This document shows positions 33,975-37,789 of a stretch of DNA of 64,000 bases, one piece after another. The position numbers were made by a program, and so were the translations under genes. The notes under the pieces were generated by a model that saw only the letters and a program-made list of their open reading frames with translations, was not told where the DNA came from and searched no databases. The first letter of the stretch is position 1. Each line of letters opens with the position of its first letter. Origin of the DNA: Octopus vulgaris (taxonomy: Eukaryota); NCBI GenBank assembly GCA_951406725.2, contig OX597831.1, forward strand, positions 26,164,001 to 26,228,000, in the 5' to 3' direction.

Positions 33975-34005
<31 letters not shown>

Positions 34006-34017
34006 TATGCATATATT

Positions 34018-34074
<57 letters not shown>

Positions 34075-34075
34075 C
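33615..34075. repeat. Long compound (TATG)n/(TA)n microsatellite
   Basis: Direct reading; similar tracts at 860-1060, 14740-14960, 31645-31970, 32740-33200, 50600-51260 and 58330-58620. Confidence 0.95.
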
Positions 34076-34386
34076 ATACACACATTCACACCCAAATATA
34101 TCTAATTGTTAATAACAAGTTTCTTGCTGCTTTTTTGTTTTTGCTTTTTTAATCTTTAATCACGGGAGTAAATTATCAGTTTTAAATAAATATATTCTGT
34201 TAAGTGCATTGATTATTCTTTCTCCCATTCGTTCTTTCAAATTCACACACACCTGATCAACATCATCATCATCGTCATAGGCTGAACAGGTCATCATGAT
34301 CTATGTCAGTTTTTATTTAGAATTACCTCCCCGTTAAGTAGATTAGGTGCTGTATCTCACAAGCACTATGTATATATCTATATATA

Positions 34387-34427
<41 letters not shown>

Positions 34428-34574
34428 ACACAGACAGAGAGTTGAGTGGATGACAGACTGTGACTTGATGGTATTTAGCTACTGTGTGTAGTAGGTCTTG
34501 CAATGATGAAGAGCCTCTCTAAGTATCTTGTCTCTATGTATGTCGTATATGTGTGCATATATGCATGTGTGTGA

Positions 34575-34632
<58 letters not shown>

Positions 34633-34651
34633 ATATATATGTATATACACA

Positions 34652-35237
34652 CAGGCTGGTGCAAAAGTAGGAGAACAGTTATGAAAAAGAAAACACATAC
34701 AATACTCATTTATTTTTATCAAAAAATTTACAAGTTACAATAAAAGTATTATTATAGTTATCATAAATGCATTATTATGATTAATGACATGAAGGCGCGT
34801 AGCTTAGTGGTTAGGGCACTTGGCTCACAATTGTAAGGTCCTGAGTTCAATTCCCAGCGACGCATTTTGTCCTTGAGCAAGACACTTTATTTCACATTGT
34901 TCCAGTACACTCTGCAGACAAAAATGAGTTGTATCTGCGTTTCAAAAGGTCGGCCTTGTCACACTCTGTGTCACACTGAATCTTCCTAAGAACTACGTTA
35001 AGAGTGCACATGTCTGTAGAGTGCTCAGCCACTTGAACATTAATTTCACGAGCAAGCTGTTCCGTTGATTGTATCAGCTGAGACCCTCGTCGTCGTAACC
35101 AACAGAGTGGTCCATGATTAATGACACTGAAAATATCAAAAACGAGACTAACTAATTTAATGTGCTAATAATTTTAATGAATTAAGTATTATAACATCCA
35201 TGTGATACTTACTGTATACCTACTTTTGCACCCCTTG
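34652..35237. mobile_element. Tc1/mariner-type MITE interrupted by a SINE
   Basis: TIRs caggctggtgcaaaagtaggagaacagt and actgtatacctacttttgcaccccttg, followed by TA. Confidence 0.75.
34790..35113 (+). mobile_element. tRNA-derived SINE family D (tail 1) with 13-bp TSD
   Basis: tgaaggcgcgtagcttagtggttagg...gagttcaattcc...tgtccttgagcaagacacttt; TSD atgattaatgaca at 34777-34789 and 35114-35126. Confidence 0.85.
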
Positions 35238-35309
35238 TATATGTATATGTATGTGTGTGTGTATATATATATCTATATATATACACTCACACACACACAC
35301 ACACACACA

Positions 35310-35590
35310 ATTGCAGTATGGAAGGTGTTTATAAGCCATTTAAAAATACACAAAAACCATTAGATTCACTTCAACATTTAAATTTAATTTGCCAAAATAT
35401 TTTCATTGCTTTGAGACTGCGACCTGTTCACTGACAAAATTCTGTGCTGCATCTGAATTTTGTCAGTGAACAAGTCACAGTTTCAAAGTGAAGAAAATAT
35501 TTTGGCAAATTAAATTTAAATGTTGAAGTGAATTTAACAGGTTTTGTGTGTTTTTAAATGGCTTACAAACATCTTCCACATTTTAATTGT
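35310..35590. mobile_element. ~280-bp palindromic element with two variant-core (GTGAACA) hammerhead folds
   Basis: ~125-bp inverted arms around tgtgctgcatct; each arm reads TTTGTCA-GTGAACA-R-stem II-GAA-AATATT-T-TGGCAAA. Confidence 0.7.
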
Positions 35591-35757
35591 TTTTGTTTCA
35601 GCACATGATCTCAGATCAGGTTACTTGCTATGCAAGTACATCTCCATAATAATTATATATATATAGAAAGAGAAAGAGAGAGACACACACACACTCACAC
35701 ATGTATTGAGAGTTGACTGTCAAAAAAATACATGCTCAATACCATAACAGAAATTAA

Positions 35758-35980
35758 CCCGTTTCAATACTAGCCTGGCTGAAACTGCCTCTGGTTCTGT
35801 AGTACAAATGTCTTGTTTTCAAAAGTTCTGAATTAGAATATTCCACCAAACCTTTGTAACATTTTATGTTCCTAACACTAGCTTAATGATAATTAAGTTA
35901 TTTTACTAAATTCTATGTTATATTTAAAATTAATTGAAAGAAACACAGAGCTTCTCAACAAAAATATGGTAATAAAAGCA
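35758..35980. mobile_element. piggyBac-type MITE (decayed)
   Basis: TTAA on both sides (35754-57, 35981-84), CCC start, degenerate short TIRs. Confidence 0.5.
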
Positions 35981-36007
35981 TTAATAATATTTTATATTTT
36001 AAATCTG

Positions 36008-36670
36008 AAACTAAAAGAAGCCAACTGAATACATGATTGTGTGTGTGTTGGTATGTGTGTGTGTTGGTGTCAGTGTCTCTTTCTATTAAGATCATGTGAT
36101 AGTTGTAAAAGAATGTCACTGTCTTACAGCAGTGTCCTTTATTGCCAATCTTTCATGGAGACATGTCTGGCTTTAGGGAAATATTATTGTACTTGGAAAC
36201 AGGTGAGGGTTGGTGACAGTAAAGGCATCTGTATGTAGAATGTTGGTGACAGTAAAGGCACCTGTATGTAGAATTTGCATTTTGGGAAACTACCACCTGT
36301 GTCATCTCTTGTGAAAGGTAAGAGAGTCCAGTTTGCTGGACATTGTTGTAGAGCTGAAAAAGAGGTAATTTCTACTCTTCTCCTCTGGAAGCCATCTACT
36401 CGCAATACCAGAGGGTGCACACTCTCATACTCTGATGTAATCTCCAGGGTTACAGGCATCCAGCAACAGGACCTCCGTAATGCCATGATGGACCGTGAAG
36501 TCTGGCGTAGCATGGTAAATTCCATTGTCTCAACCACGGTCGAACAATGATGATGATGATGTATGTAGAATGTTGGTGACAGTAAAGGCACCTGTATGTT
36601 GAATATTTGCGTTAACAAATTCTGTCCAACCAATGCAAGCATGTAATAGTTAACATTAAAATAGTGATAA
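36008..36670 (+). mobile_element. SINE (A-type 5' part, E-type tail) interrupted by a LINE fragment
   Basis: gaaactaaaagaagcc...ggaaacaggtgagggttggtgacagtaaaggcat...tgtccaaccaatgcaagcatg; relatives at 32005-32190 (+) and 63120-63350 (-). Confidence 0.6.
36279..36559 (+). mobile_element. RTE/RTEX-clade LINE 3' end, open frame, (TGA)n tail
   Basis: FGKLPPVSSLVKGKRVQFAGHCCRAEKEVISTLLLWKP...AMMDREVWRSMV* (FAGHxxR and DRxxWR motifs) then tgatgatgat. Confidence 0.85.
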
Positions 36671-36680
36671 TGAAGATACA

Positions 36681-36952
36681 TCTATTATATAAAATCCGTT
36701 CTGTCTGTCTGTGTGTATGTCTTCTAGGATCCTCCATCCGATTGCACTCAAATTTGATATGCAGATACGAACGGTATCAGGGCATGTATAAGTCTTTAAA
36801 GATTTACAAAAATTGAATCCAGGTGAGAATGCAATTGATAAAGCCGTGGGAACGTACATTTGTATGCGCATCGGACAAGTTATTTTCAGAAAATTTGGTT
36901 TAAATGTGTGACAACTCAGCACCGGCCATTGGACGGGGGGGCGTTTTGCTAA
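36681..36952 (+). mobile_element. Non-autonomous Helitron-like element
   Basis: a|TCtattatataaaatccgttctgtctgtctg start; GC-rich 3' end and gCTAA|t (decayed CTAG). Confidence 0.6.
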
Positions 36953-36962
36953 TAGGTATACT

Positions 36963-37789
36963 TAGGGTGCGATGCGTAAATTGTCGTCATTTTATATTTT
37001 TAATTTCACATATGCACATTGCTTGTTTTTAATTTTGTCGACTACACAGTATAGTAGGCTCAGTTGAGCACCATCTGTGAGGAAAACAGTACCATGTCAC
37101 AATTTAGAAATTTAGAAACAACATGCTATACTGCTTGGCTTTTGTGCTGGAATCTTCAATACGAACATTTCAGACTGTCTGTGTGTGAATCTGAGGACAT
37201 GTACTGAGAATGATAAAAATTAAACATCCAGTCAGCACTATGGTGTTTAGAGTGATCGCTAGTGATGGTGACATTATGCCCCCATTCATCTTCTCACACG
37301 GCCTTAGGCTCAATATGGAGGCTTACATCATGTGTCCAGAGGAGGTAGTACTGCCATGGGTCAAGAGGGTGGCTGCTAGAAGACCCTATGTTTTGCAACA
37401 GGACTTTGCACCATGCCACACAAGCAGAAGAACCCAGTCATGGCTGTCAGACAATTTCTGTGACCCTACTACCCTTAACATCTGGCCACCTAACTCTTAA
37501 GACTGCAGCTCCCTTGATTATTATGTGTAGGGCATAGTTGAGTGAGAGACTAACAAAACTCCCTTGTAACACCAAAGATGAACTGAGGGCAAGGATTATG
37601 GCAGCATTCACCAACTTAAACAAGGAAACCATCCAGAAAAGTTGCAGGAGATTCCAAAGTTGCCCGGGGACCACGGTTGAAGCCAATGGCGATTTTACTG
37701 AATAAATTTACTCTTTAGTATTTCAATATATTTTTATTTAATTTTGGTAAATACATCTGTTAAAATGACAGTTTATTCACTGTACCCTG
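36963..37789 (+). mobile_element. Tc1/mariner DD37D (maT-type) transposon, internally deleted pseudogene
   Basis: QQD-FAPCHTSRRTQSWL...WPPNS*DCSSL-DYYV: 37 residues between the last two Asp; TIRs tagggtgcgatgcgtaaattgtc / gacagtttattcactgtaccctg+TA; internal stops. Confidence 0.85.

Follow-up and report, generated by a model that had tools for sequence, protein, structure and literature searches.

A flipped 3:8 pair in a candidate minimal hammerhead at the 3' end of a Penelope-like element of Octopus vulgaris

An inverted pair of element ends and its two hammerhead-like motifs

The analysed window is a stretch of 64,000 nucleotides of the Octopus vulgaris genome (contig OX597831.1, positions 26,164,001 to 26,228,000, forward strand), and the locus under study is a palindrome within it at approximately 35307-35648. 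The initial annotation had described this palindrome at 35388..35509; it is real and its bases are as given there, but its true extent is larger. The two arms, 35307-35456 on the minus strand and 35455-35592 on the plus strand, are alike in 116 of 133 aligned columns. The minus arm (35307..35456) is an inverted copy of the 3' end of a Penelope-like element (PLE), i.e. a pseudo-LTR piece, with 138/148 identity to the consensus of the old subfamily defined below; it begins at an acceptor-like AG/ATG site, has no tail and terminates at a (CA)n/(TA)n microsatellite. The plus arm (35455..35592, delimited by the arm alignment) is a direct copy of the 3' end that is 5'-truncated just before stem I, and on this arm only it is followed by the PLE tail and then (TA)n (35593..35648, plus strand); over 35445-35637 it has 170/194 identity to the old consensus. 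Both copies are members of the old subfamily, the plus arm with 87.6% identity to its consensus and the minus arm with 93.2%, and CpG-type changes account for 7 of the 24 differences in the former and 7 of the 10 in the latter. The arms had been described as parts of one element, and so they are: an inverted pair of PLE 3' ends. Sequencing-run contigs under several organism codes contain the same stretch. At 34795-34990 of the window, a tRNA-like head (Rfam tRNA model, 28.1 bits, gathering threshold 29) followed by a repeat body is probably, to judge by its sequence, a tRNA-derived SINE; ARAGORN called no tRNA gene in the window, 34795-34990 included.

Each arm contains a minimal type I hammerhead-like motif, at 35459..35509 on the plus strand (G3:C8 core at 35466-35472) and at 35388..35438 on the minus strand (core at 35431-35425). 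The plus copy consists of stem I (35459-65), the core GTGAACA (35466-72), an extra A (35473), stem II with its loop (35474-92), GAA (35493-95), AATATT (35496-501), T (35502) and the second strand of stem I (35503-09); the minus copy consists of stem I (35438-32), the core (35431-25), an extra G (35424), stem II with its loop (35423-05), GAA (35404-02), AATATT (35401-396), T (35395) and the second strand of stem I (35394-88). Every element position stated for either arm in the initial annotation was recovered base for base. The predicted site of cleavage is after U17, which is 35502 in the plus copy and 35395 in the minus copy. U4, G5 and A6, A9, and G12, A13 and A14 are present in both arms and in the consensus sequences of all three subfamilies; the canonical identities C3 and G8 are absent, the motif having G3 and C8. 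In the hammerhead core, the 3:8 Watson-Crick pair belongs to the active conformation. The hammerhead models of Rfam have no match at E values up to 10 in window positions 34000-37000 or in an intact copy, in agreement with the earlier expectation that a search of the CUGANGA type would miss this family.

The plus copy is decayed, with C11.1 lost and G10.1 opposite A, and the A-U pair within its stem II is the product of two CpG-type changes and not of selection. The minus copy keeps four of the five stem II pairs, with G10.1 opposite U, and is predicted to fold preferentially into a different structure, with G3-A6 of the core paired to the stem II 5' strand. The two folds lie on opposite strands, and an RNA spanning both arms is computed to fold into a single 140-bp hairpin (-178.8 kcal/mol, z -22.8) in which a hammerhead would be buried. 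The two PLE 3' ends of this inverted pair are dead, and the motif copies in them are most likely inactive. The palindrome would go back to the insertion event itself, in which a second copy, truncated at its 5' end, was joined to the first in the opposite orientation.

The parent Penelope-like element

Long copies contain, upstream of the motif, an acceptor-like site (a branch-point-like CTAAC, a pyrimidine run and AG/ATG just before stem I), a (TACA)n tract, approximately 1 kb of non-coding sequence and then the last part of a coding frame; with this part as a protein query, 4387 candidates were returned. One locus, L134, has a frame of 1025 codons that is open from stop to stop, its first part running in from an inverted copy, and encodes a C-terminal GIY-YIG domain above the Pfam cut-off (25.4 bits versus 22.6). 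The linker motif CX3CX2C is CQSNCAVC at residue 896, and the CCHH motif comprises two cysteines between YQI and YIG and two histidines behind. The reverse transcriptase (RT) is weak in Pfam (RVT_1, 15.4 bits in a second locus, L102) and YVDD is present. The G3:C8 motif lies approximately 1 kb behind the stop of the L134 frame, so that the link to PLEs, which had been proposed from the motif, now has a frame encoding RT and GIY-YIG to carry it. At its 5' end, L134 has an inverted truncated copy that carries the tail, and the tail is present on one end only. Inverted 5'-truncated copies, a one-sided tail and microsatellite targets, by which a PLE is recognized, were all found.

Comparisons with published systems refer to the available parts of the papers cited. 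A one-sided tail has been described for PLEs (Craig 2021, PMC8557442), and the Neptune and Nematis PLEs of that paper share with the octopus element a C-terminal GIY-YIG with CCHH, a CX2-5CxxC linker, the inverted 5'-truncated copy, the one-sided tail and (TA)n insertion; in contrast to them, the octopus element has a microsatellite-rich 3' UTR of approximately 1 kb and a tail of approximately 55-60 bp rather than 30-40 bp. As judged from sequence, the arms of the palindrome are the 3' ends of an EN+ PLE that resembles the Neptune/Nematis type in its described features. A protein tree (20 rows, midpoint root, L193 and L195-L198 not included) joins the element's own frame to P0001 (96/97) and leaves the other branching open. 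None of 20 candidates from viral contigs is related to the PLE frame, and a PDB sequence search gave no match at E 0.1.

The motif resembles the minimal hammerheads (min-HHR) that Cervera and de la Pena (2014, PMC4209133) described from metazoan PLE pseudo-LTRs in its location at the PLE 3' end, in the hallmarks of that type (an extra nucleotide between A9 and G10.1, a G10.1-C11.1 pair and a palindromic stem III) and in the preponderance of solitary truncated copies, with opposite-strand pairs 100-700 bp apart. In Drosophila virilis the end of an intron adjoins helix I (PMC4209133), and the acceptor-like site occupies the corresponding place here, although no spliced form of the octopus element was seen. 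The octopus motif differs in its core, the representatives in the readable part of Fig. S3 being all CUGANGA or UUGANAA, and no GUGANCA core occurs among the rows that could be read of the supplementary alignment of 56 motifs (PMC4209133). It also has G as the extra nucleotide where the >80% consensus of that paper has H (G in one row).

The AG/ATG before stem I is where the 5' ends of copies pile up: of 30 unselected copies (L271-L300), 15 start 55-68 nt before U17, and none of 30 core-selected copies (L033-L062) retains the upstream intron-like sequence. This pattern suggests a short unit, approximately 210 bp long, whose 5' end is defined by an RT stop or by something related to splicing, and not random truncation. 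Short tandem repeats were observed behind or inside PLE frames of metagenomes (L183:1795-2110, L187:5500-6055); in L183, the descriptor found no hammerhead.

Copies, subfamilies and the state of the 3:8 pair

A DNA search of the 2.8 Gb genome returned 2775 candidates. When the genome was scanned with a pattern of 34 letters, of which core positions 3, 7 and 8 were left as N, it gave 606 exact matches and a reversed control gave none, and a looser G3:C8 descriptor has 8735 matches versus 136 in the control; thus, the motif is not due to chance. Among the first 100 of the 606 matches listed, inspected by eye, 85 have G3:C8, 6 differ at position 3 only and 9 at position 8 only, and C3:G8 was not encountered. 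Thirty copies picked by the core pattern include 18 with an inverted partner within 600 bp and 12 without, and 11 of the 30 have the tail, on one side only and with junction points that differ between copies. The palindrome is therefore a frequent outcome of insertion and not a fixed element.

A set of 145 loci yielded 137 de-duplicated copies that fall into a young subfamily (37 copies with 98% mean identity to their own consensus, G3:C8 in 36/37) and an old subfamily (100 copies, 94%, G3:C8 in 83/100); patterns containing the core were used to seed an ancient subfamily (30 loci, 82%, G3:C8 in 20/30). Stems I and II have 7 and 5 bp in the young and old consensus, 6 and 6 bp in the ancient. 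The subfamily consensuses have G10.1-C11.1, one extra nucleotide after A9, A15.1-U16.1, H17 and a self-complementary stem III (AATATT/T or AATT/T). The swapped core and the paired stems therefore persist in the consensus of collected copies, which was part of the check proposed by the initial annotation, and the ancestral stem II surmised there, GTCGC/GCGAC, is the family consensus. The sequences around the ancient subfamily loci gave a tblastn match to the frame at only one of 40 loci, on the opposite strand.

A few arrangements of the motif stand apart. Direct head-to-tail repeats occur at L100 (G000:C2:208856028 region) and L009:1501-1877, 62 and 235 bp apart, and could yield a dimer hammerhead within one transcript. 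On C2, three copies of the motif at a spacing of 3.4 kb were considered as a tandem PLE, but they lack a frame and belong to a segmental duplication. At L093:1600-1635 (minus strand) and in two duplicates, a hairpin that resembles a hammerhead and ends in GAAAC lies on the strand opposite to the motif, approximately 100 bp upstream of a G3-type motif; the surrounding segmental triplication measures 3.4 kb, and its copies of the motif carry A8. Canonical minimal hammerheads with a CUGACGA core and ACGU as stem III form another family in the same genome (L132:619, plus strand; L137:229, minus strand count).

Constancy of the motif within a subfamily reflects descent from one master and not selection. 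Between the old and ancient consensus sequences, none of 33 hammerhead positions differs, as against 44 of the 162 positions elsewhere (p 9e-5 by Fisher's test), a flank divergence of 27%. This test is partly circular, because the patterns by which the ancient family was found already contained 21 of the 33 positions; for the remaining 12 positions, the comparison is 0/12 versus 44/162 (p 0.026), a figure that is in truth slightly weaker because U16.1, one of the 12, was strictly also in a pattern. The same two consensuses differ at N7, the sole free position of the core (A in old, C/T in ancient), in loop II, in both partners of the sixth stem I pair (T-A versus G-C), and in the length of stem III, which remained palindromic (AATATT versus AATT). 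The motif positions that changed are all, by the sequence comparison, ones that a hammerhead allows, and a frozen motif amid drifting flanks argues that PLE hammerheads may be under selection.

A pattern forbidding G3 and C8 gave 24 matches, some of them double-hit copies of the main family and others a separate old family; a loose pattern excluding the main family gave mostly chance matches (194 versus 149 in the control), of which only those that form stems were followed. The sister family has the same hammerhead scaffold with a 5-nt loop II, aligns to the main family within the 48-nt motif and nowhere else (76-79%), and has a complementary 3' strand of stem I although this strand lies outside the search pattern. 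Thirty loci were fetched, 26 aligned and 3 more dropped as not covering the core, leaving 23 copies with U3·G8 in 17, C3:G8 in 5 and U3:A8 in 1. By tblastn, no PLE frame lies within 1.5 kb at any of the 30 loci, and its parent element was not found beside them (L241-L269); its stem III, AGGACU (e.g. G000:C7:87295045-87295280), is self-complementary with two central G·A mismatches.

Related frames at 18 metagenome loci are followed by C3:G8 motifs in L184, L185, L191, L192 and L193 and by a U3:A8 motif in L195, as found by the descriptor; by eye, L187 has C3:G8, L182 has C3:G8 with U4 changed, and L189 and L181 have U3:A8-like cores. None of the 18 has a G3:C8 motif. Motif pairs were dissected by script, and no pair statistics were drawn from a 12-motif MAFFT alignment because its metagenome rows were misaligned at position 3. 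G3:C8 is probably the derived state, to judge by how C3:G8 is distributed among the relatives. The compensation at 3:8 that had been proposed from the window copies thus extends through three subfamilies that keep G3:C8, while in related families this place is taken by C3:G8, U3·G8 or U3:A8, and the reading of the motif as a PLE hammerhead with a compensatory G3:C8 pair is supported by these comparisons.

Predicted cleavage, rival explanations and significance

Small PLE hammerheads with a diminished stem III reportedly cleave as dimers, as Lünse, Weinberg and Breaker are said to have described in 2017. The 3:8 pair is part of the active conformation and natural U3:A8 variants have been published (Perreault 2011, PMC3088659), among them the cores of Schistosoma Cercyon PLEs (PMC4209133). 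The octopus motif resembles these in being changed on both sides of the pair, within PLEs and in over a thousand copies; unlike U3:A8, in which a pyrimidine at 3 and a purine at 8 are kept, its pair is flipped to purine 3 and pyrimidine 8. The identical core change has been engineered as C3G/G8C (PMC8495972) and as G3-C8 (PMC3884650), and in the Poseidon PLE hammerhead of Anolis either single change, C3G or G8C, abolishes cleavage and the C3G/G8C double mutant partly restores it (PMC11167929). Those molecules are laboratory-made, whereas here a family of thousands of copies has the change as its natural state. The literature searched yielded no naturally occurring G3:C8 core, including the available parts of PMC6155905, PMC6765202, PMC7761336 and PMC10085705, although the very large alignment of Lünse 2017 may include one. 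By its sequence, the motif is likely the natural form of a variant that in the papers searched is so far only a laboratory mutant.

For an intact young copy, stems I and II are the minimum-energy structure (-15.4 kcal/mol), with an additional G3·U17 pair on stem I that recalls the inactive 3-17 pairing in PMC3884650; this pair, and the pairing of G3-A6 with stem II in the minus arm, are possible inactive traps in the folding model. The AAUAUU duplex that would be stem III of a dimer is marginal, at only -0.2 kcal/mol, and the minimum-energy fold of two strands has a swapped stem I and no stem III. Minimal PLE hammerheads need a second copy for stem III and cleave slowly and poorly in vitro (PMC4209133), and cleavage by the Anolis PLE hammerhead needs the PLE protein, whose insertion reaction in vitro is possible without cleavage (PMC11167929). 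On these published findings, the expected activity is a slow cut after U17 that is dimer- or protein-assisted. When 30 copies were selected solely on the 32 bases that follow U17, no genomic 5' end lay within 2 nt of the predicted cut (0/30), the nearest starts being 3 and 5 nt away, both at the centre of one AT-rich palindrome, and no peak of loose ends at the predicted cut appears among the contig-layout rows listed.

On balance, we favour the explanation that the parent PLE has a minimal type I hammerhead with G3:C8 in place of C3:G8 that probably, though by no means surely, cuts slowly after U17. The hammerhead fold would have been kept by selection through successive waves of transposition; stem III would require either two copies, paired through their self-complementary AAUAUU, or the assistance of the element's protein; and cleavage would trim read-through transcripts of the parent element. 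The absence of copies starting at the cut and the marginal dimer helix make a structural role without cleavage a real rival: the fold may be kept as a signal for binding of RT or endonuclease, for recognition of the template or as an RNA end, with a G3:C8 core that cuts little or not at all in the cell. The poor cleavage of minimal PLE hammerheads in vitro (PMC4209133), the dispensability of cleavage for insertion by the Anolis PLE (PMC11167929) and the tolerance of a U3·G8 wobble in the sister family point the same way; yet positions 3 and 8 are pairable in every family (G:C, C:G, U·G, U:A), the pair they form belongs to the active conformation (PMC3088659), and G12, A13, A14, A9 and the NUH are unchanged while N7 varies, so we consider such a role rather unlikely, if worth serious attention.

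Improbable, in our estimation, is a founder accident, in which a useless hammerhead took two mutations in one master and was passively copied thereafter. All G3:C8 subfamilies derive from one lineage, so that the swap is a single event, and the ancient family was found with a pattern that contains the core; against this, the motif stayed frozen while its flanks drifted by 27% between subfamilies, stem I changed on two sides and stem III in a way that preserves the palindrome, and two random mutations would seldom yield an exactly complementary pair. Hardly any credence attaches to the palindrome as a MITE (DNA transposon) or a microRNA-like hairpin with an incidental likeness to a hammerhead, for all the stability of the long hairpin and a weak score with a microRNA model (MIR841, 56.5 bits versus a gathering threshold of 200): tested as a MITE, the family lacks fixed terminal inverted repeats, with 12 of 30 copies unpartnered, variable junctions and a one-sided tail, and this explanation is refuted by the element encoding RT and GIY-YIG that has this very sequence as its 3' end.

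It is quite possible, at slightly less than even odds, that the octopus motif is the first natural working G3:C8 hammerhead, selected through at least three waves of transposition, that one genome presents a natural series of 3:8 pairs on one scaffold, and that surveys based on CUGANGA have missed a whole class of this ribozyme. The gain is moderate, because published mutants predict the chemistry and one natural swap at 3:8 (U3:A8) is known. The consensus of the hammerhead core underlies nearly all searches for this ribozyme (standard descriptors are used also in bioRxiv 10.64898/2026.07.22.740005, in its available part), and a family of thousands with a flipped 3:8 pair escapes both the pattern and Rfam. 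Should the motif cut, it would be evolutionary confirmation that pairing and not base identity counts at 3:8, and PLE clades said to lack hammerheads would merit rescanning with all pair types. The series of G3:C8, U3·G8 and C3:G8 would then allow a direct test of the 3:8 pair and of the role of the hammerhead in PLEs, and selection on PLE hammerheads, if it is at work, bears on what those hammerheads do.
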